Shown piece after piece: positions 1 to 64,000 of a DNA stretch of 64,000 bases (its first letter is position 1; every line of letters begins with the position of its first letter). Made by a program: the position numbers and the translations under genes. This stretch comes from Balanoglossus misakiensis (taxonomy: Eukaryota; Animalia; Hemichordata). The notes below the pieces were generated by a model, which searched no databases, was not told where the DNA came from, and saw only the letters and a program-made list of their open reading frames with translations. The stretch lies in assembly GCA_040954595.2 (NCBI GenBank), contig CM082588.2, forward strand, positions 7,920,844-7,984,843, given 5' to 3'.

Positions 1-312
1 GTACTTTGGCTGATATCGAACAGAACCAACAAGAAACAACTCAACATCTTGGTCAGATATCAGAGACACAGAGTGACCATAGCAGTACTTTGGCTGATAT
101 CGAACAGAACCAACGGGAGAACCAACAAGAAACGACTCAACATCTTGGTCAGATATCAGAGACACAGAGTGACCATAGCAGTACTTTGGCTGATATCGAA
201 CAGAACCAACAAGAAGCGACTCAACATCTTGGTCAGATATCAGAGACACTGGTTGACATTAAAGAAGGCCTCAAGACTTCACATACCAGTGAGTCAAGAA
301 CGTGTGTTCCAG
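1..312 (+). CDS. NLR unit 1 exon 1, 3' part only (coiled-coil repeat; truncated by window start)
   Basis: Same repeat and tail (VDIKEGLKTSHTSESRTCVP) as other units; donor CCAG|GTAATA at 312/313, phase 1. Confidence 0.85.
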
Positions 313-455
313 GTAATAATTAAGATGAAGAAGTGATATTCATTTCTATGGCTGAAATCTACAATCATATTTGCTTAGTTTGAAAAAAAGATTCTGCTGT
401 ATGTACACCACCATTAAAAATAACTTTTTCTATAAATTCTCTCCTTTATCTCAAG

Positions 456-587
456 ATGCTTCCTGTGCTTGGTGCAACTGTAAGAGTGATAATCTCAAGA
501 AGTTTATACGCTGTTGTGCAGTGATGTATTGTGGGAAAGACTGCCAGGAACAACACTGGAGGAAAGGTCACAGAGAAGAATGCAAAG
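456..587 (+). CDS. NLR unit 1 exon 2, zf-MYND cassette
   Basis: Pyrimidine tract then TCAAG| acceptor; CAWC..FIRC..YCGKDCQEQHW..HREEC; donor AAG|GTACAA; 132 nt, phase 1-1. Confidence 0.8.
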
Positions 588-1222
588 GTACAATTGATCC
601 TTTTCTGAACTCCACATGACCCCACGAGATTTCACGTAGCTAAGCAATTTATATGGGAGGACATTCCCCTGGCACAGGGCAAACAAGTAACACATGTCCT
701 ACCATATTCAATGGCACAAACAATTTCCTTTTTTGTTAAACTCTGCACCTATTCTAATTTCTGAGCTACCAACACGTTGCTATAGTAATCAACCAAGTGT
801 CAGGAGATTTCTAAATGAGCAGGAAATCATCATTGTTAAAGTCTGAACCTATATTCTAGTTACATAGCAAGCTAGATAGTATGAAAATATTCACAAACAC
901 CTTTTAGTACATGTAAGAACTTATAAATAAGATACTGAAAATTTCCATGTTTCACGCATAATGTTTGTATTCTCATGTGCTGAGCTGTCTGTCAAAAAGC
1001 TGGGGGTAATCACGACATGACCCTGCCTATATGGAACACAATATGTGGTTCATATACATGTAGTTGTTGGTCACAATACATCTAGTACACCATTTGAAAC
1101 CCCTGACTATATTATACTTAGGTACAATGATGTTTTACAGCTTGTGAAAATAGTAAACTAAACAGCAACTATCTGCAATACAAAAGTCATACTATCAATA
1201 TTATATTGTTTTTTTCTTACAG

Positions 1223-4065
1223 ATACTTCTGCAGGGTTTGAGTGGCTTAAAGACTATCTCAAAGAATTGTACAGCCATGACTTTGACAAGTTCCAACCTC
1301 TGCCATGGAATGAAAACTTCTCACTCCATTTATCTGATGTCTATACCCGACTGAAGATGGGAGAGGTTAATGAAAGGGGTAAGATCATTAAGGACAATGA
1401 AGAAAATGACACTGTAGTTCATGAGAGTGCAATATTTGAAGCAGATCGAAATGGAGTGAGACCACGTAGAATAAGAATTGAAGGACCTCCAGCTATTGGC
1501 AAGTCAATGTTTAGTAGAAAGCTGGCCTACAACTGGGCTTGTGGAAAATTAGAGCAATTTAAATTAGTCTTTCTGTTGGAAATGAGATATATGAGTAAAG
1601 AATCAATCATAGAAACCATATTTGATCAATTACTTCCTGATGATGCAGAAATGTCCAGAGATGAGCTTGACAAGGTTCTGAAAAGGAATGCAGATTCTGT
1701 GCTGTTCCTCTGTGATGGTTTGGATGAAATGTGTAAGGATTTCAAGGAAAGTTCTGATATAAGTCGGATTATTGCAAAGAAATTATTGCCAAGATGTACA
1801 GTAGCTATCACAACCAGGCCCCATGAATGTGACACACAGCTGAAAAACTGTGATTCACATTATCACATAGAGGGCTTCACATGGAGTGATTGTTGGGAAT
1901 ATATCAGGAAGTACTTCAAGCATGAGTCTCAGACATGTGTGAATATGATCAAAAATTTAGAACGAAACCTCCAGTTTAAATGGTTGGATGATTTCCTTAG
2001 TAATCCCTTACATGTTTCATTTCTTTGTGTACTGTGGGAGGATCATCAAGATGGTGACCATTTCCCAACTAGAGTGACAGAGTTGTATTTTGAAGTATTG
2101 CAGTGTATTTTGAAGAGGTATTGTTCCAAGACTGGAGTCAGTCTTGATGAACAGGGAGAAGTACCCGTTGATATCATGGCTGGTGTAAATAAACTGGCTG
2201 CCATTGCTTATAATTATCTGAAACAGGGAAAAATACTCATAAATGAGGTAGATGTGATACCAACATGGCTCTTGTCACTAGGGTTACTTGTGCGTGATTG
2301 CGGTGTATCTCGCACAAAACCAAAGAAAGTTTGTTTCTTCTGTCACAAAACTTGGCTGGAATATTTTGCTGCTTTACATATTGCTGAATGTGTGAAGGAT
2401 ACTGCTTCCTTTGATGAGTTTCAATTTCTATCTGACGATATTATCCGCAGTTTCCAAGTCTTTAAATTTCTGACTGGCACTCTGAAGGAGAAAGCTGGTC
2501 CAGTATTTAAGGAAATTGGGATGGAGATGTGCAAGAATGCAGATGGTTATGACTTTGTGTTTAGAATGAAGAGCTATATAGCTTTCTTACATGAAAGTGT
2601 CAATTATCAAGCATTTTTGAAATTCATAGAACCCATCCTTTATGAATCTAAGTGTATCATTTATAATCCTTTATTTTATTTTATAGCAAGATCTATGGTT
2701 GTCAATTCTATGTCTTCACCATCACCATATTATATTCTAAGTGACGATTTGAATTTTCTTACATTGTATTATGATAGTTACTTGATGATAATCATTGATA
2801 TGCTGAAGTATGAACACTCATGTCAATGTAGACCCAAATTTAATAAAAATCTCTGGTTAGATATCAACAAAATGCAATCATCAGCGATATCCCACTTGGC
2901 AGAGGCACTGGAAAACAATCTTATTTCTCTTGAATGGCTTGTGTTGAATGTGACTTCATCCAGTGGCAAGAATCTGCTTCAGTTGGCAAAAGCTGTCAGA
3001 GAAACCAAAACGGTACAAAACATTCATATCATTGTAGATGATAGGGATAATGTTGTTGACAGCACTCCCAATGAAAAATGTAAGCAAGGCACCTCAAATA
3101 AAGAAACATACTTGACATCACATACTCTAAGAAATCTTATCGATAATGCTGTGAAAAATAAGCATATTGATTGTTTTTCATTGCATACAGTTGACCTGTC
3201 TGACCATCAACGGGAGCATATTGATAACATTCTTCCATATAAGTCATTGAAACAGGCCAGGCACTTTCAAAATATTGTGGAAACCGAAACAGGTTTAAAT
3301 AGTGCATTATTGAAAGTTGCTGATATGCTTGAACACTGTCAATCTACCAATGTTTGTCATTTTGTACTTTTTGATGGTGTCAGATATTCTGCCATTGAGG
3401 GCAGTACTGCAAGAGCTTTGTTAACAGCTGTTCAAAATATCAGCAAATCAATTAAATCTCTTGGCTTGTCAGTCACATCAGAATATGTAAAGATACCTTA
3501 TGTAGTTCCATCTGGATCATTGCCAATATCTGATGTTGTGAATAAGATTTTACATATTTTGATGTCTAACACCACATTAGAGGATCTTAAGTTATTTATA
3601 GAGAATGAAAATGTTGATGCTGTATCGAAGTTTATTCAATGTAATAAGTATGTCAAGTCACTGTCCTTTGCTCTGTATCAGTCCAGAATGAGCATAGACC
3701 ATTTATGTTCAGCTCTCTGTGCTGCTTTGAGTTCCAATACAACTCTGGAAAGCTTTGCGCTGGAGTTTTGTTATGAGTTTGTTAGAGTTTATAGTAACCA
3801 TGAACTTTCCACTGAGTATAAGTATCTTAGTCAATTGATTTTACCAACACATAGTCGATTGTGTGGTGGAAAAACTGCATTGAAGACAATTTCATTTACT
3901 TTTCCATCATTAAGTCCAAAACGCAGGGATGATATTGTCAATGTCATGACCGAGTATTTTAAAGGAAATGTTTCAGGGTCATACCAATACACTGTGAAGC
4001 AGATCATGTCCATTTATATGTACCGGTATATTCACTTTCTTAACGTATCGATCAGTGAACTCTAG
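1223..4065 (+). CDS. NLR unit 1 exon 3, NACHT + winged helix + LRR-like region
   Basis: Acceptor TTTTCTTACAG|; Walker A GPPAIGKS, Walker B VLFLCDGLDE, sensor-1 ITTRP, NPL, FCHKTWLEYFAA; LRR-like segments such as SNTTLESFAL. Confidence 0.92.
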
Positions 4066-7966: not shown

Positions 7967-9113
7967 ATGGCGACCGGTGGTGCATTTTTAACTACAGCCG
8001 AGAAGGTGAATCACGCTAGACTTTGTCGACTACTTATCGACGGTGGATCTAATGCGGTGAGATGTGTATTTGACAGCAAGATTCCACCTAATGTGCTTGC
8101 AAAAACTCTTAACAAGCATAAGAAGTCGTTAGAGAAACTACGAGTGTTGTATAAAGGACCTAAACCGGGTCCAAAGGTTATCAGTGATGGTCAGTGGGAT
8201 CTGTTATACCCAACCCAACCCAACCTTGTCAAGTCTGAAGACTTCGACATTACATTGCTCACAGTTTTATTACGCAATATCTGTGGCCTTCGAGTGACAC
8301 AGTCCTCCCCTGGTGTTGAAGCTGATGTGGCCCGAATAAAAGACTTCAGGAATAAACTTCAACACATGCCGGGCACAGCTGTCCCTGACAGCGAATTTCA
8401 ATCTTTCTGGGATGACATTAGTAAAGTATTGGTACGTCTTGGCGCTAAGCAGGGAGATATCGATCAGTTGAAGACTGCGAGTATGGACCTTGCTGAGACA
8501 GACAAATACGAACAAACTTTAAAGGACTGGCAAGAATCCGACAAAAAGTTCCTACAGCGTATAGAAGAGAAAATTGGCGATCAAACTCGTCAGCTTGGTC
8601 AGATATCAGAGACACAGAGTGACCATAGCAGTACTTTGGCTGATATCGAACAGAACCAACGGGAGAACCAACAAGAAACAACTCAACATCTTGGTCAGAT
8701 ATCAGAGACACAGAGTGACCATAGCAGTACTTTGGCTGATATCGAACAGAACCAACGGGAGAACCAACAAGAAACGACTCAACATCTGGGTCAGATATCA
8801 GAGAGACAGAGTGACCATAGCAGTACTTTGGCTGATATCGAACAGAAACAACGGGAGAACCAACAAGAAACGACTCAACATCTTGGTCAGATATCAGAGA
8901 CACAGAGTGGCCATAGCAGTACTTTGGCTGATATCGAACAGAACCAACAAGAAACGACTCAACATCTTGGTCAGATATCAGAGACACAGAGTGGCCATAG
9001 CAGTACTTTGGCTGATATCGAACAGAACCAACAAGAAACGATTCAACATCTGGTTGACATCAAAGAAGGCCTCAAGACTTCACATACCAGTGAGTCAAGA
9101 ACATGTGTTCCAG
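7967..9113 (+). CDS. NLR unit 2 exon 1, DZIP3-type HEPN + 5 coiled-coil repeats
   Basis: ATG in AAAGATGG; NHARLCRLLIDGG, FDITLLTVLLRNICGL, RNKLQH; donor CCAG|GTAATA. Confidence 0.88.
8597..9052 (+). repeat. 96/84-bp coding VNTR, pattern LLLSS
   Basis: GQISETQ..HSSTLADIEQN(QREN)QQETTQHL units. Confidence 0.95.
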
Positions 9114-9864
9114 GTAATAATTAAGATGGAGAAGTGGAATTCATTTCTATGGCTGAAATCTACGACATTATAGCTTTTTTATAATTTGTATAATTTTTGG
9201 TCAAACTTAATTGTTCCTTTATGGTCTCATAAATTATATGTGCAGATAAGAACTCATATTCCAACTTGGTCAGATGACCCTGAGGGCCAATCTGGGTTAG
9301 CTTATTTCACATCTTAAGTCTTACATCATAATCATACATTGCATAGACCGTCATAAGCAAGTTTTTTTGCAATATATGAGAATGGGAATAATCAGGAAAT
9401 CAAGATAATTACAATCCCACTTTTCTAGGGAGTCCAAAATCATGTTAGGTGGTGACATGTTGGGTTTTTGCCGCAAGTTATCTTAAAGGGACAAAGACTC
9501 TCTCTCACTTCCCCTTTTCCATTAATAATGTTTGATACATGACACTGTTTATGTTATTCTACATGTGGATATATATAGTGAATCAACGTTCGACTGCACA
9601 CAACTTCCACCCCACTTGTATGATATGAGAGCAACAAATCTCGCCAAAATGAATATGGTCGAATGTTGATTCACTATATATTCACAAGTATATAACATAA
9701 ACAGTGTCTTGTATCAAATATAATTAATGGAAAAAGGGCAACGAGAATGAGACTTTAATGTCCTTTTAATGGCGACATCATGGTTGCTTAGTTTGAAAAA
9801 AAGATTCTGTTGCACACCACCATTGAAAATAACTTTTTCTATAAATTCTCTCCTTTATCTCAAG

Positions 9865-9996
9865 ATGCTTCCTGTGCTTGGTGCAACTGTAAGAGTGATA
9901 ATCTCAAGAAGTGTACACGCTGTTGTGCAGTGATGTATTGTGGGAAAGACTGCCAGGAACAACACTGGAGGAAAGGTCACAGAGAAGAATGCAAAG
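9865..9996 (+). CDS. NLR unit 2 exon 2, zf-MYND with all eight canonical ligands
   Basis: CAWC..CTRC..YCGKDC..HREEC; AG/GT flanks, 132 nt. Confidence 0.82.
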
Positions 9997-10622
9997 GTAC
10001 AATTGATCCTTTTCTGAACTCCACATGACCCCACGAGATTTCACGTAGCTAAGCAATTTATATGGGAGGACATTCCCCTAGCACAGGGCAAACAATTAAC
10101 ACATGTCCCGCCATATTCAATGGAACAAACAATTTCCTTTTTTGTTAAACTCTGCACCTATTCTAATTTCTTAGCTACCAACCCGTTGCTATAGTAATTA
10201 ACCAAGTCTCAGGAGATTTCTCAATGAGCAGGAAATCATCATTGTTAAAGTCTGAACCTATATTCTAGTTACATACCAAGCTAGATAGTATGAAAATATT
10301 CACAAACACCTTTTAGTACATGTAAGAACTTATAAATAAGATACTGAAAATTTCCATGTTTCACGCATAATGTTTGTATTCTCATGTGCAGAGCTGTCTG
10401 TCAAAAAGCTGGGGGTAATCACGACATGACCCTGCCTATGTGGAACACAATATGTGGTTCATATATTACGGTAGTTATGGGTCATAATACTTCTAGTACA
10501 CCATATGTAACCCCTGACTACATTATACTTAGGTACAATGATGTTTTACAGCTTGTGAAAATAATAAACTAAATCTGTAATACAAAAGTCATACTATCAA
10601 TATTATAATTGTTTTTCTACAG

Positions 10623-13459
10623 ATACTTCTGCAGAGTTTGAGTGGCTTAAAGACTATCTCAAAGAATTGTACAGCCATGACTTTGACAAGTTCCAACCGT
10701 TGCCATGGAATGAAAACTTCTCACTCCATTTATCTGATGTCTATACCCGACTGAAGATGGTAGAGGTTGATGAAAGGGGTAAGATCATTGAGGACAATAA
10801 AGCAAAGAACACTGTAGTTCATGAAAGTGCAATATTTGAAGCAGATCGAAATGGAGTGAGACCACGTAGAATAAGAATTAAAGGACCTCCAGCTATTGGC
10901 AAGTCAATGTTTAGTAGAAAGCTGGCCTACAACTGGGCTTGTGGCGAATTAGAGCAATTTAAATTAGTCTTTCTGTTGGAAATGAGATATATGAGTCAAG
11001 AATCAATCATAGAAACCATATTTGATCAATTACTTCCTGATGATGCAGAAATTTCCAGAGATGAGCTTGACAAGGTTCTGAAAAGGAATGCAGATTCTGT
11101 GCTGTTCCTCTGTGATGGTTTGGATGAAATGTGTAAGGATTTCAAGGAAAGCCTTGATATTAGTCGGATTATTGCAAAGAAATTATTGCCAAGATGTACA
11201 GTAGCTATCACAACCAGGCCCCATGAATGTGACACACAGTTGAAAAACTGTGATTCACATTATTACATACAGGGCTTCACAAAGAGTGATTGTAGGGAAT
11301 ATATCATGAAGTACTTCAAGCATGAGTCTGAGACTGGTAAGAATTTGATCGCAAATTTAGAACAAAACCTTGAGTTTGAATGGTTGGATGATTTTCTTAG
11401 TAATCCCTTACATGTTTCATTTCTTTGTGTACTGTGGGAGGATCATCAAGATGGTGACCATTTCCCAACTAGAGTGACAGAGTTGTATTTTGAAGTATTG
11501 AAGTGTATTTTGAAGAGGTATTGTTCCAAGACTGGAGTCAGTCTTGATGAACAGGGAGAAGTACCCGTTGATATCATGGCTGATGTAAATAAACTGACTG
11601 CCATTGCTTATAATTATCTGAAACAGGGCAAAATACTCATAAATGAGGTAGATGTGATGCCAACATGGCTCTTGTCACTAGGGTTACTTGTGCGTGATTG
11701 CGGTGTATCTCGCACAAAACCAAAGAAAGTTTGTTTCTTCTGTCACAAAACTTGGCTGGAATATTTTGCTGCTTTACATATTGCTGAATGTGTGAAGGAC
11801 ACTGCTTCCTTTGATGAGTTTCAATTTCTATCTGACGACATTCACCGCAATTTCCAAGTCTTTGTATTTCTGACTGGCACTCTGAAGGAGAAAGCTGGTC
11901 CAGTATTTAAGGAAATTGGGATGGAGACGTGCAAGTCTGCAGATGATGCTGGCTTGGACAGCTATATAGCTTTCTTACATGAAAGTGTCAATTATGAAGC
12001 ATTTTTGAAATTCATAAAACCCATCCTTTATCAATTTAAGTGTTTCATTTGTGATCCTTTATTTTTTAGACCAAGACCTGTGGTTGTCAATTCTTTGTCT
12101 TCACCATCACCATATTTTCTAAGTGACGATTTGGATTTTCATACATTGTATTATGAAGATAGTTACTCGATGATAATCATTGATATGCTGAAGTATAAAC
12201 ACTCACATGAAAGTATACCCAAATTTCATAACAATCTTGAGATACATATCAACAATATGCAATCATCAGAGATTTCCTATTTAGTAGAGGCACTGGAGAA
12301 GAATCTTATTTCTCTTGAATAGTTTGTGTTGAATGTGACTCCATCCAGTGACAAGAATCTTCTTCAGTTGGCAAAAGCTATCAGAGAAACCAAAGCAGTA
12401 CAAAACATTCATATCATTGTAGGTGATGATAGGGACAATGTTGTTGACAGCACTCCCAATGAAAAATGTAAGCAAGGCACCTCAATTAAAGAAACAGATT
12501 TGACATCACGCACTTTAAGAAACCTTATCGAAAATGCTGAGAAAAATGAGCATATTGATTGTTTGTCATTGCATACATTTGACCGGTCTGACCATCAACG
12601 GGAGAATATTGATAACATTGTTCCATATAATTCATTGAAACAGACCAGGCACTTTCATAATATTGTGGAAACCGAAACAGGTGTAAATAGCGTATTACTG
12701 AAAGTTGCTGATATGCTTGAACACTGTCAATCTACCAAGGTTTGTCACGTGGTACTTGATGATAGTGTCAGATATTATGCCATTGAGGGCAGTACTGCAA
12801 GAGCTTTGTCAAAAGCTGTTCAAAATATCAGCAAAACAATTAATTCTCTTAGCTTGCTTGTCACATCAGAATTTTTAGATATACCGGAATATTTTGATGT
12901 TCAATCTGAATTTTTGCCTATATGTCATGTTGTGAATGAGATTTTACACATTTTGATGTCTAACACCACATTAGAGGATCTTAAGTTATTTATAGAGAAT
13001 GAAAATGTTGATGCTGTATTGAAGTTTATTCAATGTAATAAGTATGTCAAGTCACTGTCCTTTGCTCTGTATCAGTCTACAGTGAGTATAGACCATTTAT
13101 GTTCAGCTCTCTGTGCTGCTTTGAGTTCCAATACAACTCTGGAAAGCTTTGCGCTGCATTTGTGTGATGAGTCAGATGCAATGTATAGTAACACTGAACA
13201 TTCCACTGAGCATAAGTATATAAGTAAATTCATTTTACCAACACATAGATTATTGTGTGATGGAAAAACTGCATTGAAGACGATTTCATTTACTTTTCAA
13301 TCATCAAGTCCAGAACGCAGGGATGATATTGTCAATGTCATGACCGAGCATTTTAAAGGAAATGTTTCAGGGTCATACAAATACACTGTGAAGAGGCTGA
13401 TCAGGTGGGATCTTCAATGGTATATTCACGTTCTGGAAGTATCCATCAGTGGGCCCTAG
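10623..13459 (+). pseudogene. NLR unit 2 exon 3 (NACHT + LRR-like) interrupted by in-frame TAG at 12320-12322
   Basis: Paralogs have TGG (LEW) at this codon; frame stays open downstream to 13459. Confidence 0.85.
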
Positions 13460-22328: not shown

Positions 22329-23077
22329 GTAATAATTAAGATTGACAAGTTGAATGCATTTCTATGGCTGAAATCTACAATCTTGTAGGTTTTTTAGAAT
22401 TTGTATAATTTTTGGTCAAACTTAATTTTTCCTTCATGGTCTCATAAATTATATGTGCAGATAAGAACTCTTATTCCAATTTGGTCAGATGACCCTGAGG
22501 GCCAATCTGGGTTAGCTCATTTCACATCTCAAGTCTTACGTCATAATCATACATTGCATAGACCATTTATAAGCAAGTTTTATACTTATTTTTGCAATAT
22601 ATGAGAATGAGAATAATCAGGAAATCTAGATAATTACAATCCCACTTTTCTGGGGAGTCCAAAATCTTGTTAGGTGGTGACATCTTGGGTTTTTGCCGCC
22701 AGTTATTTAAAGGGACAAAGACTCTCTCTCAATTCCCCTTTTCCATTAATAAATGTTTGATACACGACACTGTTTATGTACATGTATATAGTGAATCAAC
22801 GTTCGACCGCACACAACTTCCATCTCACTTGTATGATATGAGAGCAACAAATCTCACCAAAATGAATATGGTCGAATGTTGATTCACTATATATACACAT
22901 GTAGAATAACATAAACAGTGTCTTGTATCAAATATAATTAATGGAAAAAGGGCAGCGAGAGTGAGACTTTAATGTCCCTTTAATGGCGACATCATGGTTG
23001 CTTAGTTTGAAAAAAGATTCTGTTGTACACCACCATTAAAAATAACTTTTTCTATAAATTCTCTCCTTTATCTCAAG

Positions 23078-23209
23078 ATGCTTCCTGTGCTTGGTGCAAC
23101 TGTAAGAGTGATAATCTCAAGAAGTTTATACGCTGTTGTGCACTGATGTATTGTGGGAAAGACTGCCAGAAACAACACTGGATGAAAGGTCACAGAGAAG
23201 AATGCAAAG
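23078..23209 (+). CDS. NLR unit 3 exon 2, zf-MYND
   Basis: As unit 1; splice sites conserved. Confidence 0.8.
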
Positions 23210-42660: not shown

Positions 42661-43897
42661 ATGGCGACCGGTGGTGCATTTTTAACTACAGCCGAGAAGG
42701 TGAATCACGCTAGACTTTGTCGACTACTTATCGACGGCGGATCTAAAGCGGTGAGATGTGTATTTGACAACAAGATTCCACCTAATGTGCTTGCAAAAAC
42801 TCTTAACAAGCATAAGAAGTCGTTAGAGAAACTACGAGTGTTGTATAAAGGACCTAATCCGGGTCCAAAGGTTATCAGTGATGGTCAGTGGGATCTGTTA
42901 TACCCAACCCAACCCAACCTTGTCAAGTCTGAAGACTTCGACATTACATTGCTCACAGTTTTATTACGCAATATCTGTGGCCTTCGAGTGACACAGTCCT
43001 CCCCTGGTGATCTCCGTGTTGAAGCTGATGTGGCCCGAATAAAAGACTTCAGGAATAAACTTCAACACATGCCGGGCACAGCTGTCCCTGACAGCGAATT
43101 TCAATCTTTCTGGGATGACATTAGTAAAGTATTGGTACGTCTTGGCGCTAAGCAGGGAGATATCGATCAGTTGAAGACTGCGAGTATGGACCTTGCTGAG
43201 ACAGACAAATACGAACAAACTTTAAAGCACTGGGTGCTGGAAGAGAAAGTTGATAAGATATCAGAGACACAGAGTGGCCATAGCAGTACTTTGGCTGATA
43301 TCGAACAGAACCAACGGGAGAACCAACAAGAAACGACTCAACATCTTGATAAGATATCAGAGACACAGAGTGGCCATAGCAGTACTTTGGCTGATATCGA
43401 ACAGAATCAACGGGAGAACCAACAAGAAACGACTCAACATCTTGGTCAGATATCAGAGAGACAGAGTGGCCATAGCAGTACTTTGGCTGATATCGAACAG
43501 AACCAACGGGAGAACCAACAAGAAACGACTCAACATCTTGATCAGATATCAGAGACACAGAGTGGCCATAGCAGTACTTTGGCTGATATTGAACAGAACC
43601 ATCGGGAGAACCAACATGAAACGACTCAACATCTTGGTCAGATATCAGAGACACAGAGTGGCCATAGCAGTACTTTGGCTGATATCGAACAGAACCAACA
43701 AGAAACGACTCAACATCTTGGTCAGATATCAGAGACACAGAGTGGCCATAGCAGTACTTTGGCTGATATGCAACAGAATCAACGGGAGAACCAACAAGAA
43801 ACGACTCAACATCTTGGTCAGATATCAGAGACACTGGTTAACATCAAAGAAGGCCTCAAGACTTCACATACCAGTGAGTCAAGAACATGTGTTCCAG
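42661..43897 (+). CDS. NLR unit 5 exon 1, HEPN + 6 coiled-coil repeats
   Basis: RNKLQH motif; donor CCAG|GTAATA. Confidence 0.9.
43252..43815 (+). repeat. 96/84-bp coding VNTR, pattern LLLLSL
   Basis: Counted from translation. Confidence 0.95.
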
Positions 43898-44036
43898 GTA
43901 ATATTTAAGATGGAGAAGTGGAATTCATTTCTTTGGCTGAAATCTACAATCATGGTTGCTTATTTTGAAAAAAAGATTCTGTTGTACACCACCATTAAAA
44001 ATAACTTTTTCTATAAATTCTCTCCTTTATCTCAAG

Positions 44037-44168
44037 ATGCTTCCTGTGCTTGGTGCAACTGTAAGAGTGATAATCTCAAGAAGTTTATACGCTGTTGTGC
44101 AGTGATGTATTGTGGGAAAGATTGCCAGAAACAACACTGGATGAAAGGTCACAGAGAAGAATGCAAAG
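44037..44168 (+). CDS. NLR unit 5 exon 2, zf-MYND
   Basis: As unit 1; preceded by the short (~140 nt) intron form. Confidence 0.8.
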
Positions 44169-44804
44169 GTACAATTGATCATTTTCTGAACTACACGTGA
44201 CCCCACGAGATGTCACGTAGCTAAGCAATTTATATGGGAGGACATTCCCCTGGCACAGGGCAAACAATTAACATGTCCCACCATATTCAATGGCAAAAAC
44301 AATTTCCTTTTTTGTTAAACTCTGCACCTTTTCTAATTTCTTAGCTACCAACACGTTGCTATAGTAATCAACCAAGTCTCAGGAGATTTCTCAATGAGCT
44401 GGAAATCATCATTGTTAAAGTCTGAACCTATATTCTAGTTACATACCAAGCTAGATAGTATGAAAATATTCACAAACAACTTTTAGTACATGTTAGAACT
44501 TATAAAGAAGATACTGAAAATTTCCATGTTTCACACATAATGTTTGTATTCTCATGTGCAGAGCTGACACTGTCAAAAAGCTGTGGGTAATCACGACATG
44601 ACCCTGCCTATGTGGAACACAATATGTGGTTCATATACTGTACAGTAGTTGTGGCTCATAATACTTCTAGTATAGCATATGTAACCCCTGACTATATTAT
44701 ACTTAGTACAATGATGTTTTACAGCTTGTGAAAATAGTAAAACAAACAGCAATTACCTGCAATACAAAAGTCATACTATCAATATTATAATTGTTTTTCT
44801 ACAG

Positions 44805-47638
44805 ATACTTCTGCAGGGTTTGAGTGGCTTAAAGACTATCTCAAAGGATTGTACAGCCATGACTTTGACAAGTTCCAACCGTTACCATGGAATGAAAACT
44901 TCTCGCTTCATTTATCTGATGTGTATACCCGACTGAAGATGGTAGAGGTTGATGAAAGGGGTAAGATCATTGAGGACAATGAAGAAAATGACACTGTTGT
45001 TCATGAAAGTGCAATATTTGAAGCAGATCGAAATGGAGTGAGACCACGTAGAATAAGAATTGAAGGACCTCCAGCTATTGGCAAGTCAATGTTTTCACGA
45101 AAGCTGGCCTACAACTGGGCTTGTGGCAAATTAGAGCAATTTAAATTGGTCTTTCTGTTGGAAATGAGATATATGAGTCAAGAATCAATCAGAGAAACCA
45201 TATTTGATCAATTACTTCCTGATGATGCAGAAATTTCCAGAGATGAGCTTGACAAGGTTCTGAAAAGGAATGCAGATTCTGTGCTGTTCCTCTGTGATGG
45301 TTTGGATGAAATGTGTAAGGATTTCAAGGAAAGTTCCGATATTAGTCAGATTATTGCAAAGAAATTATTGCCAAGATGTACAGTAGCTATCACAACCAGG
45401 CCCCATGAATGTGACACACAGCTGAAAAACTGTGATTCACATTATCACATACAGGGCTTCACATGGAGTGATTGTTGGGAATATATCAGGAAGTATTTCA
45501 AGAATAAGTGTGAGACTGGTGAAAATTTGATCTCAAATTTAGAACAAAACCTCCAGTTTGCATGGTTGGATGATTTCCTTAGTAATCCCTTACATGTTTC
45601 ATTTCTTTGTGTACTGTGGGAGGATCATCAAGATGGTGACCATTTCCCAACTAGAGTGACAGAGTTGTATTTTGAAGTATTGCAGTGTATTTTGAAGAGG
45701 TATTGTTGCAAGACTGGAGTCAGTCTTGATGAACAAGGAGAAGTACCCGATGATATCATGGCTGATGTAAATAAACTGGCTGCCATTGCTTATAATTATC
45801 TGAAACAGGGAAAAATACTCATAAATGAGGTAGATGTGATGCCAACATGGCTCTTGTCACTAGGGTTACTTGTGCGTGATTGCGGTGTATCTCGCACAAA
45901 ACCAAAGAAAGTTTGTTTCTTCTGTCACAAAACTTGGCTGGAATATTTTGCTGCTTTACATATTGCTGAATGTGTGAAGGATACTGCTTCCTTTGATGAG
46001 TTTCAATTTTTATCTGACGACATTGACCGCAATTTCTTGGTATTTCTGACTGGCACTCTGAAGGAGAAAGCTGGTCCAGTATTTAAGGGGATTGGGATGG
46101 AGACGTGCAAGTCTGTAGGTGATGCTGACTTAACAGGCAAAATGTACCGCTATATAGCTTTCTTACATGAAAGTGTCAATTATCAAGCATTTTTCAAATT
46201 CATAGAACCCATCCTTTATGAATTTACGCGTTTCCTTAGTACTCCTTTCTATTTAATTGCAAGAACTTCTACGGTTGTCAATTCTTTGCCTTCACCATCA
46301 CCATTTATTCTAAGTGACGATTTGAATTTTCGTACATTGTATTATAAAGATAGTTACTTGATGATAATCATTGATATGCTGAAGTATAAACACTCAGGTG
46401 AAAGTAGAACCAAATTTGGTAAAATTCTTGATATAGATATAAACCAAATGCAATCATCAGAGATTTCCTATTTGGCAGAGGCACTGGAGAAGAATCTCAT
46501 TTGTCTTGAATGGCTTGTGTTGAATGTGGCTCCATCCAGTGACAAGAATCTGCTTCAGTTGGCAAAAGCTATCAGAGAAACCAAAGCGGTACAAAACATT
46601 CATATCCTTGTAGATGATGATGTTGTTGACAGCATTCCCAATGAAAAATGTAAGCAAGGCACCTCAAATAAAGAAACAGATTTGACATCACGCACTTTAA
46701 GAAACCTTATCGAAAATGCTGTGAAAAATAATCATATTGATTGTTTGTCATTGCATACAATTGACCTACATGTATCTGACCATTCACGGGAGAATATTGA
46801 TAACATTGTTCCATATAAGTCATTGAAACAGGCCAGGCACTTTCATAATGTTGTGGAAACCGAAACAAGTTTAAATAGCGTATTATTGAAAGTTGCTGAT
46901 ATGCTTGAACACTGTCAATCTACCAAGGTTTGTCATGTGATACTTGTTGATAGTGTCACATATTCTGCCATTGAGGGCAGTACTGCAAGAGCTTTGTTAA
47001 AAGCTGTTCAAAATATCAGCAAAACAATTACATCTCTTTGCTTGTTTGTCGCAATCGAAAATGTAAAGATACCTTGTGTAGTTCCATCTGGATCATTGCC
47101 AATATCTCATGTTGTGAATGAGATTGTAAACATTTTGATATCTAACACCACATTAGAGGATCTTATGTTATTTATAGAGAATGACAATGTTGATGCTGTA
47201 TCGAAGTTTATTCAATGTAATAAGTATGTCAAGTCACTGTCCTTTGCTCTGTATCAGTCCAGAATGAGCATAGACCATTTATATTCAGCTCTCTGTGCTG
47301 CTTTGAGTTCCAATACAACTCTGGAAAGCTTTGCGCTGCATTTTTGTGAGATTTGTATGCCATCTGTCAACCCTGAACTTTCCACTGAGCATAAGTATAT
47401 TAGTCAATTCATATTACCAACACATAGGTTATTGTGTGGTGGAATAACCGCATTGAAGACGATCTCATTTACTTTTCCATCATCAAGTCCAAAAGTCACG
47501 GTTGATATTGTCAATGTCATGACCGAGTATTTTAAAGGAAATGTTTCAGGGTCATACCAATACACTGTGAAGAGGCAGATCGGGTTAGGTTATCAAATGT
47601 ATTTTCACGTTCTGAAAGTATCCATCAGTGAACCCTAG
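44805..47638 (+). CDS. NLR unit 5 exon 3, NACHT + LRR-like (spliced product ~1400 aa)
   Basis: Intact frame; NACHT motifs conserved. Confidence 0.92.
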
Positions 47639-50271: not shown

Positions 50272-50282
50272 GGGGATTCCCC
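50272..50282 (+). promoter_or_regulatory. kappaB site upstream of unit 6
   Basis: GGGGATTCCCC. Confidence 0.5.
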
Positions 50283-50743: not shown

Positions 50744-51926
50744 ATGGCGACCGGTGGTGCATTTTTAACTACAGCCGAGAAGGTGAATCACGCTAGACTT
50801 TGTCGACTACTTATCGACGGTGGATCTAAAGCGGTGAGATGTGTATTTGACAACAATATTCCACCTAATGTGCTTGCAAACACCCTTAACAAGCATAAGG
50901 TGTCGTTAGAGAAACTACGAATGTCGTATAAAGGACCTAATCCAGGTCAAAAGGTTATCAGTGATGGTCAGTGGGATCTGTTATACCCAACCCAACCCAA
51001 CCATGTCAAGTCTCAATATTTCGACATTACATTGCTCACAGTTTTATTACGGAATATCTGTGGCCTTCGACATCCAAGAGATAGAGTATGGACACATCCC
51101 TCCCCTGGTGATCTCCGTGTTGAAGCTGATGTGGCCCGAATAAGAGAGTTCAGGAATAGACTACAACACATGACGGGCACAGCTGTCCCTGACAGCCAAT
51201 TTCAATCTTTCTGGGATGACATTAGTAAAGTATTGGTACGTCTTGGCGCTAAGCAGGGAGATATCGATCAGTTGAAGACTGCGAGTATGGACCTTGCTGA
51301 GACAGACAAATACGAACAAACTTTAAAGCACTGGGAAGAATCTGACATGGTGCTGGAAAAGTTCCTACAGCGTATGGAAGAGAAAATTGGTGATCAAACT
51401 CGTCAGCTTGGTCAGATATCAGAGACACAGAGTGGCCATAGCAGTACTTTGGCTGATATCGAACAGAACCAACGGGAGAACCAACAAGAAACGACTCAAC
51501 ATCTGGGTCAGATATCAGAGACACAGAGTGGCCATAGCAGTACTTTGGCTGATATCGAACAGAACCAACGGGAGAACCAACAAGAAACGACTCAACATCT
51601 TGGTCAGATATCAGAGACACAGAGTGACCATAGCAGTACTTTGGCGGATATCGAACAGAACCAACAAGAAACGACTCAACATCTTGGTCAGATATCAGAG
51701 ACACAGAGTGACCATAGCAGTACTTTGACTGATATCGAACAGAACCAACGGGAGAACCAACAAGAAACGACTCAACATCTTGGTCAGATATCAGAGACAC
51801 AGAGTGGCCATAGCAGTACTTTGGCTGATATCGAACAGAACCAACAAGAAACGATTCAACATCTGGTTGACATCAAAGAAGGCCTCAAGACTTCACATAC
51901 CAGTGAGTCAAGAACATGTGTTCCAG
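50744..51926 (+). CDS. NLR unit 6 exon 1, HEPN + 5 coiled-coil repeats
   Basis: RNRLQH motif; donor CCAG|GTAATA. Confidence 0.9.
51410..51865 (+). repeat. 96/84-bp coding VNTR, pattern LLSLS
   Basis: Counted from translation. Confidence 0.95.
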
Positions 51927-52704
51927 GTAATAATTAAGATGGAGAAGTTGAATGCATTTCTATGGCTGAAATCTACGACATTATAGCTTTTTTTATAACT
52001 TGCATAATTTTTGGTCAAACTTAATTTTTCCGTCAATTGGTCTCATAATTTATATGTGCAGATAATATTCTTATTCCAATTTGGTCAGCTGGCTTGGGCT
52101 GACCCAGGGCCAATCTGGGGTAGCTTGTTTCTCATCTCAAGTCTTACATCATAATCATACATTGCATAGACCATCAGAAGCAAGTTTTATACTTATTTTT
52201 GCAATATATGAGAATGGGAATAATCAGGAAATCAAGATAATTACAATCCCACTTTTCTGGGGGAGTCCAAAATCATGTAAGGTGGTGACATGTTGGTTTT
52301 TTGCTGCCAGTTATCTCAAAGGGACAAAGATTCTCTCTCACTGTCCCTTTTCCATTAATAATGTTTGATACATGACACTGTTTATGTTATTCTACATGTA
52401 GATACATGTGTATATAGTGAATCAACGTTCGACTGCACACAACTTCCATCCCACTTGTATGATATGAGAGCAACAAATCTCACCAAAATGGTCGAATGTT
52501 GATTCACTATATATTCAAATGTAGAATAACATAAACAGTGTTTTGTATCAAACATAATTAATGGAAAAAGGGCAGCGAGAAAGAGACTTTATGTCCCTTT
52601 AATGGATTGGCGACATCATGGTTGCTTAGTTTTAAAAAAAAAGAATCTGTTGTACACCACCATTAAAAATAACTTTTTCTATAAATTCTCTCCTTTATCT
52701 CAAG

Positions 52705-52836
52705 ATACTTCCTGTGCTTGGTGCAACTGTAAGAGTGATAATCTCAAGAAGTTTATACGCTGTTGTGCAGTGATGTATTGTGGGAAAGACTGTCAGAAAC
52801 AACACTGGATGAAAGGTCACAGAGAAGAATGCAAAG
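52705..52836 (+). CDS. NLR unit 6 exon 2, zf-MYND
   Basis: As unit 1. Confidence 0.8.
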
Positions 52837-53485
52837 GTACAATTGATCATTTTCTGAACTCCACGTGACCCCACGAGATTTCACTTAGCTAAGCAATTTA
52901 TATGGGAGGACATTCCCCTGGCACAGGGCAAACAATTAACACGTCCCACCATATTCAATGGCACAAACAATTACATTTTTGTTAAATTCTGCACTGGTTC
53001 TAGATACATTCCAAGCTTGATAGAATTACTTAGCTACCAACCTATTGCTATCATGGTAATTAACCAAGTCTCGGGAGTTTTCTCAATGAGCTGAAAATCA
53101 TCATTGTTAAACTTTGAACCTATATTCTTATCTAGTTACAAACCAAGCTAGATAGTATCAAAATATTCACAAACAACTATTGGTACAAGTAAGAACTTAA
53201 TTAAGATATTGAAAATCTCCATGTTTCACGCAAAATGTTTGTATTCTCATGTGCAGAGCTGTCTGTGAAAAAGCTGGGGGTAATCACGACATGACCCTGC
53301 CTATGTGGAACACAATATGTGGTTCATATACTACAGTAGTTGTGGGTCACAAGACTTCTAGTATACCATATGTAACCCCTGACTACATTATACTTAGTAC
53401 AATGATGTTTTACAGCTTGTGAAAATAGTAAACTAAATCTGCAATACAAAAGTCATACTATCAATATTATATTGTTTTTCTACAG

Positions 53486-56319
53486 ATACTTCTGCAGGGT
53501 TTGAGTGGCTTAAAGACTATCTCAAAGAATTGTACAGCCATGACTTTGACAAGTTCCAACCGTTGCCATGGAATGAAAACTTCTCACTCCATTTATCTGA
53601 TGTGTATACCCGACTGAAGATGGTAGAGGTTTATGAAAGGGGTAAGATCATTGATGACAATGAAGAAAATGACACTGTTGTTCATGAGAGTGCAATATTT
53701 GAAGCAGATAGAAAAGGAGTGAGACCATGTAGAATAAGAATTGAAGGACCTCCAGCTATTGGCAAGTCAATGTTTAGTAGAAAACTGGCCTACAACTGGG
53801 CTTGTGGAAAATTAGAGCAATTTAAATTAGTCTTTCTGTTGGAAATGAGATATATGAGTAAAGAATCAATCATAGAAACCATATTTGATCAATTACTTCC
53901 TGATGATGCAGAAATTTCCAGAGATGAGCTTGACAAGGTTCTGAAAAGGAATGCAGATTCTGTGCTGTTCCTCTGTGATGGTTTGGATGAAATGTGTAAG
54001 GATTTCAAGGAAAGTTCCAATATAAGTCAGATTATTGCAAAGAAATTATTGCCAAGATGTACAGTAGCTATCACAACCAGGCCCCATGAATGTGACACAC
54101 AGCTGAAAAACTGTGATTCACATTATCACATACAGGGCTTCACAATGAGTGATTGTGTGGAATATATCAGGAAGTACTTCAAGCATGAGTCTGAGACTGG
54201 TATAAAATTAATCCGAAATTTAGTACAAAATCTCCGGTTTAAATGGATGGATGCTTTCCTTAGTAATCCCTTACATGTTTCATTTCTTTGTGTACTGTGG
54301 GAGGATCATCAAGATGGTGACCATTTCCCAACTAGAGTGACAGAGTTGTATTTTGAAGTATTGCAGTGTATTTTGAAGAGGTATTGTTCCAAGACTGGAG
54401 TCAGTCTTGATGAACAGGGAGAAGTACCCATTGATATCATGGCTGATGTAAATAAACTGGCTGCCATTGCTTATAATTATCTGAAACAGGGAAAAATACT
54501 CATAAATGAGGTAGATGTGATGCCAACATGGCTCTTGTCACTAGGGTTACTTGTGCGTGATTGCGGTGTATCTCGCACAAAACCAAAGAAAGTTTGTTTC
54601 TTCTGTCACAAAACTTGGCTGGAATATTTTGCTGCTTTACATATTGCTGAATGTGTGAAGGATACTGCTTCCTTTGATGAGTTTCAATTTCTATCTGACG
54701 ACATTGACCGCAATTTCCAAGTCTTTGTATTTCTGACTGGGACTCTGAAGGAGACAGCTGGTCCAGTATTTAAGGAAATTGGGATGCAGACGTGCAAGTC
54801 TGCAGATGATGCTAACTTAATAGGCAAAATGAACCGCTATATAGATTTCTTACTTCAAAGTGTCAATTATCATGCATTTTTGAAATTCATAGAACCCATC
54901 CTTTATCAATTAACGCGTTTCATTTGTAATACTTTATTTTATCTTAGAATAAGACCTTCTAGGGTTGTCAATTCTTTGTCTTCACCATCACCATCACCAT
55001 ATATTCTAAGTGACGATGTGAATTTTCATACATTGTGTTATGGAGATAGGTACTTGATGATAATCATTGATATGCTGAAGTATAAACACTCACATGAAAG
55101 TAGACCTAAATGTGATAACAATCTCCAGTTAGATATAAACAAAATGAAATCATCACAGATTTCCTATTTGGCAGAGGCACTGGAGAAGAATCTTATTTCT
55201 CTTGAATGGCTTGTGTTGTATGTGACTCTATCCAGTGGCAAGGATCTGCTTCAGTTGGCAAAAGCTATCAGAGAAACCAATGCGGTACAAAACATTCATA
55301 TCGTTGTAAGTGATGATAGGGATAATGTTGTTGACAGCACTCCCAATGAAAAATGTAAGCAAGGCACCTCAAATAAAGAAACAGATTTGACATCACGCAC
55401 TTTAAGAAACCTTATTGAAAATGCTGTGAAAAATGAGCATATTGATTGTTTGTCATTGCTTACAGTTGACCTGTCTGACGATCAATGGGAGAATATTGAA
55501 AACATTGTTCCATATAAGTCATTGAAACAGGCCAGGCACTTTCATAATTTTGTGGAAACCGAAACAGGTGTAAATAGCGTATTATTGAAAGTTGCTGATA
55601 TGCTTGAACACTGTCAATCTACCAAGGTTTGTCATTTTGTACTTTTTGAGAATTTCACATATTCTGTCATTGAGGGCAGTACTGCAAGAGCTTTGTTCAA
55701 AGCTGTTCAAAATATCAGCAAAACAATTAAATCTCTTAGCTTGATTGTCACATCAGAATTTGAAAGTATACATTTATCTGATGTTGTGAATAAGATTTTA
55801 CACATTTTGATATATAACACCACATTAGAGGATCTTAAGTTATTTATAGAGAATGACAATGTTGATGCTGTATTGAAGTTTATTCAATGTAATAAGTATG
55901 TCAAGTCACTGTCCTTTGCTCTGTATCAGCCCGGAATGAGCATAGACCATTTATGTTCAGCTCTCTGTGCTGCTTTGAGTTCCAATACAACTCTGGAAAG
56001 CTTTGCGCTGGAGTTTTGTTATGAGTTTGATATAGTTCATAGTAACCCTGAACTTTCCACTGAGCATAAGTATATTAGTCAATTGATTTTACCAACACAT
56101 AGATTATTGTGTGATGGAAAAACTGCATTGAAGACGATTTTATTTACTTTTCCATCATTTAGTCCAGAACGCAGGGATGATATTGTCAATGTCATGACCG
56201 AGTATTTTAAAGGAAATGTTTCAGGGTCATACCAATACCCGTACACTGTGAAGAGGTCGATCAATTTTTTTTATGACATGTATATTCACACTCTTAAAGT
56301 ATCCATCAGTGGACCCTAG
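53486..56319 (+). CDS. NLR unit 6 exon 3, NACHT + LRR-like (spliced product ~1382 aa)
   Basis: Intact frame; NACHT motifs conserved. Confidence 0.92.
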
Positions 56320-61450: not shown

Positions 61451-61983
61451 TTCTTAAAACCCGGCGACGGTTGATTTCAGGGGCGATTTCAAACACTCAG
61501 TATGGTTGCAAATAATGAGAAAGACTTTTAATCAGACTCGTAATCGCACAGCGAAATTTGATAATGTTATTATAAAATATAATAGTTATATTATATCTGT
61601 ACACGTACGTAAGGACGAAATTGTTTTCTGAAGACATGAATTTGAAAGACATGCGTTTGTTTTATTATATTAAATTGTATAAAACGTGGTATTATGAATC
61701 TATATTTCTAAGATCTTTTTCAACTTCTTTCATTTATTCGATTTAGGATTTTGTCGAAACCACAAGCTCAGTCCCAAATTCGAAACTCACCTCACTACCA
61801 AAAACACGCTCAAGGCAAGCATGCACGCAAAAAGTATTGAAATTATTTGTAAGAACAAAAAAAGCATCGAAAACACATTAAGTATTGAGATTTAAAAATC
61901 ACCAAGCGACTAGTGGGCTAGTCTACATTTTGACCTATCTGACGTCAAATGCCATGAATATATTCAGGCGAAAACGAGGTTGA

Positions 61984-61994
61984 GGGGATTCCCC
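61984..61994 (+). promoter_or_regulatory. kappaB site upstream of unit 7
   Basis: GGGGATTCCCC. Confidence 0.5.
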
Positions 61995-62469
61995 TTTGAT
62001 TCCCCGGTTGCGGACAACCATATATTTATTTTTGTTTATATGTACTTGCATACTAGTATTTTGCGCCAATGTCAGTGGCCTTCACATTTGAAATCGTAGC
62101 CCCCAAACATCGATTTGTTGGACTTTTCTACCCATATGATATAAAGTTACGAGAAACTTCATCTGATTGTATCATTCTAACCACTTAACTCTAGCACTCA
62201 AAATATTTCAAGTGAGTTTCACATATACATATACATGGAACGGTAAGGCCACTGTGCCAAGCCTCTGTTAGTCGTAGTTAAGAGTTCAGACTGCGTGTTT
62301 GTGAGTTGCAGACAGAGTTGGAATTTGCGCCTGGTTTTTAGCAAATGTGAACATTTTAGTGTATCACCAACACTGTTCGAGGTAATCTTGGAAGTGGAGA
62401 TCTTCATATATCTGCGCCCAAGTGCTTCCAGAACTGGAGTCAAGTTGTGTTTTGTGATATCGTACAAAG

Positions 62470-64000
62470 ATGGCGACTGGTGGTGCCTTTATAACCACAC
62501 CCGAAAAGGTGAATCACGCTAAACTTTGTCGACTACTTATTGACGGCGGATCTAAAGCGGTGAGATGTGTATTTGACAGCAAGATTCCACCTAATCTGCT
62601 TGCGAAAACTCTTAACAAGCATAAGGCATCGTTAGAGAAACTACGAATGTCGTATAGAGGACCTAATCCAGGTCAAAAGGTTATCAGTGTTGGCCAGTGG
62701 GATCTGTTATACCCAACCCAACCCAACCTTGTCAAGTCTCAATATTTCGACATTACATTGCTCACAGTTTTATTACGGAATATCTGTGGCCTTCGACATC
62801 CAAGAGATAGAGTGTGGACACATCCCTTCCCTGGTGATCTCCGTGTTGAAGCTGATGTGGCCCGAATAAGAGAGTTCAGGAATAGACTTCAACACATGAC
62901 GGGCACAGCTGTCCCTGAGAGCGAATTTCAATCTTTCTGGGATGACATTAGTAAAGTACTGGTACGTCTTGGCGCTAAGCAGGGAGATATCAGTCAGTTG
63001 AAGACTGCGAGTATGGGCCTTGCAGAGACAGACAAATACGAACAAACTTTAAAGGACTGGGAAGAATCCGACATGGTGCTGGAAAAGTTCCTACAGCGTA
63101 TGGAAGAGAAAATTGGTGATCAAACTCAACATCTTGGTCAGATATCAGAGACACAGACTGGCCATAGCAGTACTTTGGCTGATATCGAACAGAACCAACG
63201 GGAGAACCAACAAGAAACGACTCAACATCTTGGTCAGATATCAGAGACACAGACTGGCCATAGCAGTACTTTGGCTGATATCGAACAGAACCAACGGGAG
63301 AACCAACAAGAAACGATTCAACATCTTGGTCAGATATCAGAGACACAGAGTGGCCATAGCAGTACTTTGGCTGATATCGAACAGAACCAACGGGAGAACC
63401 AACAAGAAACGACTCAACATCTTGGTCAGATATCAGAGACACAGAGTGACCATAGCAGTACTTTGGCTGATATCGAACAGAACCAACAAGAAACGACTCA
63501 ACATCTTGGTCAGATATCAGAGACACAGACTGGCCATAGCAGTACTTTGGCTGATATCGAACAGAACCAACGGGAGAACCAACAAGAAACGACTCAACAT
63601 CTTGGTCAGATATCAGTGACACAGACTGGCCATAGCAGTACTTTGGCTGATATCGAACAGAACCAACAAGAAACGACTCAACATCTTGGTCAGATATCAG
63701 AGACACAGAGTGGCCATAGCAGTACTTTGGCTGATATCGAACAGAACCAACGGGAGAACCAACAAGAAACGACTCAACATCTTGGTCAGATATCAGTGAC
63801 ACAGACTGGCCATAGCAGTACTTTGGCTGATATCGAACAGAACCAACGGGAGAACCAACAAGAAACGACTCAACATCTTGGTCAGATATCAGAGACACAG
63901 AGTGGCCATAGCAGTACTTTGGCTGATATCGAACAGAACCAACAAGAAACGACTCAACATCTTGGTCAGATATCAGAGACACAGAGTGGCCATAGCAGTA
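62470..64000 (+). CDS. NLR unit 7 exon 1, HEPN + at least 9 repeats (runs off window end)
   Basis: ATG at 62470, MATGGAFITTPEKVNHAK, near-identical to unit 3; absent from the ORF track because there is no stop in the window. Confidence 0.9.
   Translation, partial: MATGGAFITTPEKVNHAKLCRLLIDGGSKAVRCVFDSKIPPNLLAKTLNKHKASLEKLRMSYRGPNPGQKVISVGQWDLLYPTQPNLVKSQYFDITLLTVLLRNICGLRHPRDRVWTHPFPGDLRVEADVARIREFRNRLQHMTGTAVPESEFQSFWDDISKVLVRLGAKQGDISQLKTASMGLAETDKYEQTLKDWEESDMVLEKFLQRMEEKIGDQTQHLGQISETQTGHSSTLADIEQNQRENQQETTQHLGQISETQTGHSSTLADIEQNQRENQQETIQHLGQISETQSGHSSTLADIEQNQRENQQETTQHLGQISETQSDHSSTLADIEQNQQETTQHLGQISETQTGHSSTLADIEQNQRENQQETTQHLGQISVTQTGHSSTLADIEQNQQETTQHLGQISETQSGHSSTLADIEQNQRENQQETTQHLGQISVTQTGHSSTLADIEQNQRENQQETTQHLGQISETQSGHSSTLADIEQNQQETTQHLGQISETQSGHSS
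63136..64000 (+). repeat. 96/84-bp coding VNTR, pattern LLLSLSLLS then truncated
   Basis: Read from sequence. Confidence 0.93.

Follow-up and report, generated by a model that had tools for sequence, protein, structure and literature searches.

A 64,000-nucleotide stretch of the genome of the hemichordate Balanoglossus misakiensis (assembly GCA_040954595.2, contig CM082588.2, positions 7,920,844 to 7,984,843 of the forward strand), from here on called the window, harbors a tandem cluster, recently expanded, of invertebrate HEPN-NLR genes (NLR for a protein in which a nucleotide-binding domain is combined with leucine-rich repeats), whose products join a HEPN domain to a NACHT domain and leucine-rich repeats (LRR). 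We consider it rather probable that each intact copy encodes a self-contained immune sensor, in which ligand-triggered oligomerization of NACHT would activate HEPN as a ribonuclease (RNase). This logic of a sensor-triggered RNase had been put forward in a preliminary description made from the DNA alone; given the evidence described below (profile matches, catalytic and NTPase motifs that are intact, the predicted LRR fold, diversifying selection), it is the best reading, with a mechanism that stays conditional.

The array has the seven units of the preliminary description, all on the plus strand and in head-to-tail order (Table 1), and long pairwise alignments give a unit-to-unit identity of about 90-93%. 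Introns 1 and 2 both run from GT to AG and are in phase 1 in all six units that have them, exon 2 measures 132 bp in each of the six units in which it is present, and the length of exon 1 leaves a remainder of 1 on division by 3 in units 2-6, the five that have a start codon. The earlier claim that three exons join in frame and in phase 1 to encode one protein of about 1380-1580 amino acids (aa) holds for units 3-6, the complete and intact copies among the seven, which are stop-free after joining by script and predict proteins of 1,382-1,577 aa; the junctions previously named for unit 4 (31433/32195 and 32326/32943) proved exact at the sequence level. Units 1 and 7 lack their 5′ and 3′ ends, respectively, because the window edges cut both. 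Unit 2 reads as a pseudogene or an LRR-truncated form: it has a nonsense TAG at 12320, a codon that is TGG in the other five units. This stop (12320-12322) sits in the last coding exon and takes away most of the LRR; by analogy with other NLRs, such a truncation is expected to be auto-active if the transcript escapes decay.

A single gene with HEPN and NACHT-LRR in one polypeptide is the best reading of these exons, as judged from sequence: the in-frame, phase-1 GT-AG junctions are kept in all copies, and exon 3 has no usable start. Its first methionine is residue 45, downstream of P25, W28, L34, T41 and L43, columns that are invariant in 23 aligned NLRs, which makes it unlikely that exon 3 is a gene of its own. 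Long open reading frames (ORFs) on the opposite strand and in alternative frames over the coding repeat of exon 1 were taken as by-products of that repeat. Rfam gave no match in the window.

Head, switch and sensor of the predicted proteins

The three families named in the preliminary description, HEPN_DZIP3, zf-MYND and NACHT, were all found with Pfam profiles. HEPN_DZIP3 (PF18738) matched in all three exon-1 frames scanned with E values of 1e-35 to 1e-42 (122-145 bits; gathering cut-off 27). HEPN domains work as pairs. The Rx4H motif, RN[KR]LQH with its polar residue after R, is intact in each of the six units having HEPN, and in an alignment of 74 HEPN rows R is kept in 69, N in 69 and H in 68. 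The HEPN head is a likely RNA-cutting domain. In PMC3710099, Rx4-6H is given as a predicted metal-independent RNase site, NACHT and LRR fusions are listed for the family and HEPN-STAND fusions are noted. Among solved structures none related by sequence to the HEPN of the window was found.

HEPN is followed by a stalk of 5-11 repeats, each of only 28 (4x7) or 32 (3x7+11) residues. Its hydrophobic period peaks at 3.56 (10 periods tried), a value that fits a predicted polar coiled coil; a search of the Atlas with the stalk gave no usable match. The distance from HEPN to Walker A is 386-577 aa by arithmetic, as compared with a median of 182 and a maximum of 373 in 119 homologues, namely those in which a HEPN-like motif occurs together with a Walker-A-like one. 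Of these 119, 11 passed a filter, and five of the 11 have repeat stalks, with periods of 14, 21, 28 or 36; one of the five is XP_068709712.1 of the coral Montipora foliosa. The repeat stalk as such is not unique to the array; new is a spacer longer than that of any of the 119 homologues. In the five, which are HEPN-STAND proteins, the repeats (14, 21, 28 and 36 aa) are unrelated, compatible with a coiled coil and placed directly after HEPN_DZIP3. This recurrence points to the expandable stalk as a general design feature of the family.

The NACHT domain (PF05729) matched with an E value of 2e-28 and resembles those of NLRP3, NLRC4 and NAIP. All five motifs looked for, Walker A, Walker B, sensor 1, the proline of helical domain 1 (HD1) and the histidine of the winged-helix domain (WHD), are present in each of the six units having NACHT.

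The C-terminus matched no Pfam LRR family, and a definition of NLRs by profiles would therefore miss it. Its 444 residues, modeled from a 16-row alignment, gave a predicted fold (pLDDT 80) of 11 beta-alpha repeats with a terminal hairpin. Foldseek matched the model to NLRP14, ribonuclease inhibitor (RI), NOD2, NLRC4 and NAIP (E 4e-8 to 1e-5), the TM score to the LRRs of NLRP, ribonuclease inhibitor, NOD2 and RanGAP is about 0.44, and Z scores reach 20.1 for the best-matching LRR chain of an NLRP (root-mean-square deviation 4.3 over 321 residues) and 19.4 for NLRP3. The Atlas matches of the C-terminus were all LRR families but each scored under 0.9, and they serve as a lead only. Of the LRRs claimed earlier, what stands is a predicted LRR solenoid with an RI-type fold (Z 20).

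Diversification, proposed mechanism and alternatives

Comparison of the paralogues shows purifying selection on the nucleotide-binding domain (NBD) and HEPN, and diversification in helical domain 2 (HD2), at four sites of HD1 and on the strands of the LRR. The pairwise ratio of non-synonymous to synonymous substitution rates (dN/dS) is 0.35 for the NBD (confidence interval 0.19-0.65) and 0.53 for HEPN (0.33-0.87), 1.90 for the HD2 region (1.24-3.13), 1.57 for the LRR strands with the loops that follow them (1.09-2.28) and 0.86 for the helices and the rest of the LRR. The site model M2a beat M1a significantly in all three regions, flagging four sites in HD1, 17 in HD2 and 22 in the LRR; of the 22, 19 are on strands or the loops that follow them (164 positions) and 3 elsewhere in the LRR (245 positions; p 6e-6). 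Mouse NAIP5 contacts flagellin via HD1, HD2 and LRR, not via NBD or WHD (PMC5752844), and the division in the array between variable HD1, HD2 and LRR and conserved NBD and WHD matches the split seen in flagellin binding.

Starting from the identity of the domains, we infer, by analogy with NAIP/NLRC4, the following course of events. The resting protein would be closed and ADP-bound. A pathogen ligand would dock on HD1, HD2 and the concave LRR face, in a manner differing from paralogue to paralogue, and NACHT would open, upon which the conserved NBD-WHD would oligomerize. The stalks with their 28/32-residue repeats would then bundle the N-termini so that the HEPN heads meet in a paired active site, and the cutting of host or invader RNA would lead to a stop of translation or to death of the infected cell.

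Several points weigh against this interpretation. A PHI-like test marks the copies as mosaic (p 0.0005), and mosaicism inflates the significance of the site models. When gap-adjacent columns are removed, the intervals include 1 (HD2 0.96-11.5; strands 0.90-2.21); dN/dS of the whole LRR is only 1.06-1.18, and the HD1 patch taken as a block gives 0.71. The splicing that would unite HEPN and NACHT-LRR is itself inferred. A biochemical test of any DZIP3-type HEPN was not found in the literature searched, and some NACHT-LRR proteins of the predicted fold are non-immune, such as the NLRPs of the oocyte lattice, which rank among the best fold matches. The NACHT tree discussed below is a quick version whose two groups were gathered in separate searches.

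As a first alternative, HEPN could be an RNA-binding sensor or an interaction module rather than a killer, with signaling via partners (DED-NLR helpers, caspase adaptors; DED for death effector domain) in the manner of NAIP. PMC8662601 raises the possibility of HEPN-NLRs being RNA sensors, the pattern of diversification is similar to that of NAIP, a sensor that depends on NLRC4, and the 25 (27) DED-NACHT genes of Ptychodera in dataset S5 of PMC13012124 are possible helpers. The catalytic R and H are, however, kept in all window copies and in 68-69 of the 74 aligned rows, HEPN is conserved and does not diversify as expected of a ligand surface, and it takes the position that DED has in the nearest NACHT relatives. 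We regard a merely binding HEPN as unlikely.

A second alternative, improbable to a like degree and partly compatible with the RNase switch, concerns exon 2. The zf-MYND profile (PF01753) matched in all three copies scanned (E 5e-10 to 4e-8, 33.7-39.8 bits; cut-off 22.7). The full set of eight zinc ligands (a Cys7-His pattern by alignment to SMYD2) is found only in unit 2; in five of six copies (units 1 and 3-6) the third ligand cysteine is replaced by phenylalanine, for which an extra adjacent cysteine might substitute. The exon could be mostly skipped, or exon 1 could also yield a short HEPN-stalk product; the five-part protein would then be rare or missing, the real product being an ordinary HEPN-NACHT-LRR protein. 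Exon 2 is symmetric, and its skipping keeps the frame in all five units tested; its acceptor (AAG) and donor (GTACAA) are both weaker than the consensus; the zinc ligand is lost as described, and seven of its nine variable sites are non-synonymous; and read-through of exon 1 ends three codons into intron 1, which in unit 3 contains AATAAA/ATTAAA hexamers. Against skipping as the rule stand the conservation of both exon-2 splice sites in all six copies and the freedom of exon 2 from indels, with fewer variable sites (9 of 132) than in the flanking introns (114 of 723; Fisher p 0.0065, the sites not being independent). The dN/dS of MYND (0.57, interval from 0.11 upward and unbounded) is uninformative at only nine variable sites, and there is no sign of MYND diversification across the copies as far as these nine can tell.

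From this we take exon 2 to be probably a real exon, of uncertain importance, and MYND to be likely an accessory binding module, perhaps an optional one. The integrated MYND domain of the preliminary description survives as a profile match, weakened by the loss of the third zinc ligand in five of six copies and by an exon that can be skipped in frame. Its pattern is absent from all 237 homologues fetched, and PF01753 from all 89 precomputed domain lists; a search for longer proteins carrying a MYND of the window type gave no candidate, which is weak evidence. Among the literature matches listed there was no fusion of MYND with NACHT, the pearl-oyster and bioRxiv supplements, which could list one, lying outside the scope of that search, and the supplementary NLR tables of PMC13012124, PMC8260672 and PMC8662601 contain no MYND.

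Diversifying selection is also a mark of self/non-self loci, and the same switch might serve allorecognition, gamete or developmental control rather than defense against pathogens. MYND is present in the fungal allorecognition protein het-Va (PMC9262711), and the oocyte NLRPs mentioned above are non-immune. We hold this to be very improbable, since HEPN is described mainly in defense and conflict systems (PMC3710099), and tandem birth-and-death, mosaic copies and a pseudogene are the pattern reported for invertebrate NLR clusters (PMC9646362; preprint of PMC13012124). An artefact of assembly, or a repeat in decay and without function, can hardly be credited as the explanation of the array. Units 3 and 7 do have regions that share 98.3% identity over 3.5 kb, and unit 2 is broken, but a divergence of about 8% separates most copies, which have their own insertions and numbers of repeats, four have complete open frames, the repeats are always 28 or 32 codons long and the dN/dS of the NBD is as low as 0.35.

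Copies and repeats in the window

Table 1. Units of the array and features of unit 4 (positions in the window; aa, amino acids; VNTR, variable number of tandem repeats)
Feature	Position	Strand	Remarks
Unit 1	1..4065	+	5′-truncated by window; exon 1 end (to 312), MYND exon 456-587, NACHT-LRR exon 1223-4065; open frame
Unit 2	7967..13459	+	exons 7967-9113, 9865-9996, 10623-13459; TAG 12320 near LRR start; only copy with all eight MYND ligands
Unit 3	20582..26670	+	intact, 1,577 aa predicted; exons 20582-22328, 23078-23209, 23816-26670; 11 stalk repeats
Unit 4	29963..35788	+	intact, 1,482 aa predicted; exons 29963-31433, 32195-32326, 32943-35788; 8 stalk repeats
Unit 5	42661..47638	+	intact, 1,400 aa predicted; exons 42661-43897, 44037-44168, 44805-47638; 6 stalk repeats
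Unit 6	50744..56319	+	intact, 1,382 aa predicted; exons 50744-51926, 52705-52836, 53486-56319; 5 stalk repeats
Unit 7	62470..64000	+	exon 1 with HEPN and 9 or more full repeats, interrupted by window end; 98% identity with unit-3 region
Unit 4, HEPN_DZIP3 domain	30092..30508	+	Pfam; Rx4H motif RN[KR]LQH at 30350-30367
Unit 4, coding VNTR	30663..31331	+	96/84-bp units = 32/28 aa, Q/E/T/S-rich; predicted coiled-coil stalk; hydrophobic period about 3.56
Unit 4, MYND exon	32195..32326	+	phase 1-1, 132 bp; Phe in place of third zinc-ligand Cys
Unit 4, NACHT NBD	33188..33643	+	Walker A 33203, Walker B 33431, sensor 1 33530; downstream HD1 proline motif 33719, WHD His motif 34061
Unit 4, HD2-equivalent region	34145..34570	+	boundaries approximate, placed by position after WHD motif; pairwise dN/dS 1.9
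Unit 4, degenerate RI-type LRR	34571..35785	+	11 beta-alpha repeats and C-terminal beta-hairpin with hypervariable tip (predicted)

The regions 18574-22112 and 60462-64000 lie four units apart and are 98.3% identical, and a short intron 1 is common to units 1 and 5. Together these observations hint at a higher-order duplication of four genes, overlaid by gene conversion.

A hairpin miniature inverted-repeat transposable element (MITE) of ~280 bp, flanked by TTAA and with AGG...CCT ends, lies in intron 1 of units 3, 2, 4 and 6 (22707-22984, 9483-9770, 31812-32100 and 52318-52603, respectively); we take it to resemble MITEs of the Kolobok/T2 type. It is absent from units 1 and 5, whose intron 1 is ~610 bp shorter. 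At 37171-37349 there is a second, different TTAA-AGG...CCT-TTAA element with terminal inverted repeats of 26 nucleotides.

An intergenic segment of 1.7 kb, 96% identical, occurs at 14964-16654, 38699-40369 and 58786-60468, only upstream of units 3, 5 and 7; the 129-aa ORF without methionine within it (at 16162, 39878 and 59976) had no Pfam match. A 185-bp minisatellite of 1.9-6.9 copies lies ~420 bp past the stop codon (4488-5754, 27094-27621, 36211-36555, 48067-48410 and 56734-57455) and may be in or just after the 3′ untranslated region. A 237-bp tandem repeat of 4.7 copies (17367-18469) is present only between units 2 and 3.

Origin and comparison with known systems

Of 21 homologues of exon 3, 15 are hemichordate proteins, 12 of these DED-NACHT proteins; the best matches cover 84-92% of the query with an identity of 37%. 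In a NACHT tree of 43 rows (quick IQ-TREE, SH-aLRT support only) the six copies form a 21-row clade (SH-aLRT 100) together with hemichordate NLRs, 12 of them DED-NLRs and 3 of other kinds, which excludes all 16 HEPN-NACHT rows. In a HEPN tree of 207 rows (FastTree) the window copies are sister to two Ptychodera HEPN-NACHT proteins (support 98). The nesting of NACHT among the hemichordate DED-NLRs implies an independent swap of DED for HEPN, and the gene is likely a chimera that arose by phase-1 exon shuffling, in which a HEPN-stalk exon would have replaced the DED exon of a hemichordate DED-NLR.

The closest relatives of the NACHT-LRR part are the Ptychodera flava DED-NLRs XP_070556172.1 and XP_070557075.1 (37% identity), which have the same degenerate LRR but carry an N-terminal DED where the window proteins have HEPN, stalk and MYND; in XP_070557075.1 the homology begins at the exon-3 boundary. 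The closest HEPN is that of the P. flava HEPN-NACHT protein XP_070561656.1 (52% identity, the same first five residues), which differs by a NACHT only 27% identical, an unalignable C-terminus, a short linker and the lack of MYND.

The C-termini of XP_070556172.1, XP_070557075.1 and other Ptychodera NLRs align with the LRR-fold region of the window and have no Pfam LRR. Dataset S5 of PMC13012124 gives 0 NACHT-LRR among 73 Ptychodera NACHT proteins; with LRRs invisible to Pfam, zero counts of NACHT-LRR for hemichordates are therefore probably undercounts.

These findings can be extended into a bolder picture, which we think decidedly unlikely as a whole. An animal NLR lineage would have independently traded its DED for an RNase by phase-1 exon shuffling and captured MYND as an integrated decoy or adaptor, and an elastic coiled-coil VNTR would tune the pairing of HEPN heads in NACHT oligomers, yielding from each paralogue, in one protein, a caspase-independent immune switch that destroys RNA. 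If this were true, the capture of MYND would be an animal parallel to the integrated domains of plant NLRs.

The claim that DZIP3-type HEPN-NACHT fusions occur in invertebrates agrees with published work. HEPN-NLRs were found in nine invertebrate taxa, described there as untested (PMC8662601); the pearl oyster has over 50 HEPN-NACHT genes with tandem arrays and Rx4H present (PMC9646362); across nine cnidarians HEPN is the commonest partner of NACHT (PMC8260672); and dataset S5 of PMC13012124 counts 44 HEPN_DZIP3-NACHT-LRR proteins in Anthozoa (97 at a looser cut-off), has the architecture also in amphioxus and lists 3 (5) HEPN-NACHT proteins for Ptychodera. The HEPN-NACHT-LRR core is, in short, already published, including corals, molluscs and amphioxus.

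The preliminary description had not recognized the architecture. The core and, with XP_068709712.1 from Montipora foliosa (RefSeq), also its stalked form have precedents, and the MYND exon, partly degenerate and skippable, and the particular chimeric origin are the only features without a counterpart in the searches made. As new we would put forward the skippable MYND exon, the unusually long and variable spacer and a probable independent origin.

In corals and bivalves HEPN-NLRs belong to the commonest types of NLR, and the array offers a compact test set for them: its paralogues are nearly identical, have a conserved engine and a diversified ligand surface like that of NAIP, and vary naturally in stalk length. 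It suggests in addition that animals joined the HEPN effector to NACHT more than once and that Pfam misses the LRRs of hemichordate NLRs.

The invertebrate HEPN-NLRs (PF18738-PF05729-LRR) share with the window proteins the order of domains, an intact Rx4H, the tandem clusters and a proposed role as RNase or RNA sensor. The window proteins differ from them by the MYND exon between stalk and NACHT, a longer spacer, an LRR too degenerate for Pfam and a NACHT of another clade. XP_068709712.1 has HEPN_DZIP3, a perfect tandem-repeat stalk of 21-aa units, NACHT and LRR in the same order, but its charged repeat is unrelated and shorter, MYND is lacking, its LRR_6 repeats are canonical and its NACHT falls outside the window clade.

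Mouse NAIP5/NLRC4 (PMC5752844) resemble the window proteins in sequence and fold matches, and their ligand binding via HD1, HD2 and LRR and oligomerization by the conserved NBD-WHD serve as the model for how the window proteins would work. They differ in their BIR or CARD N-termini, in their output via caspase and in the need of NAIP for a helper, and are not orthologous to the window genes.

With RNase L and the bacterial STAND/NACHT nuclease proteins (Avs, bNACHT) the array would share only, as an analogy, the logic that assembly driven by a sensor activates a nuclease. RNase L is built from ankyrin repeats and a pseudokinase and responds to 2-5A as messenger, and the bacterial systems differ in being intron-less and in using other sensors.

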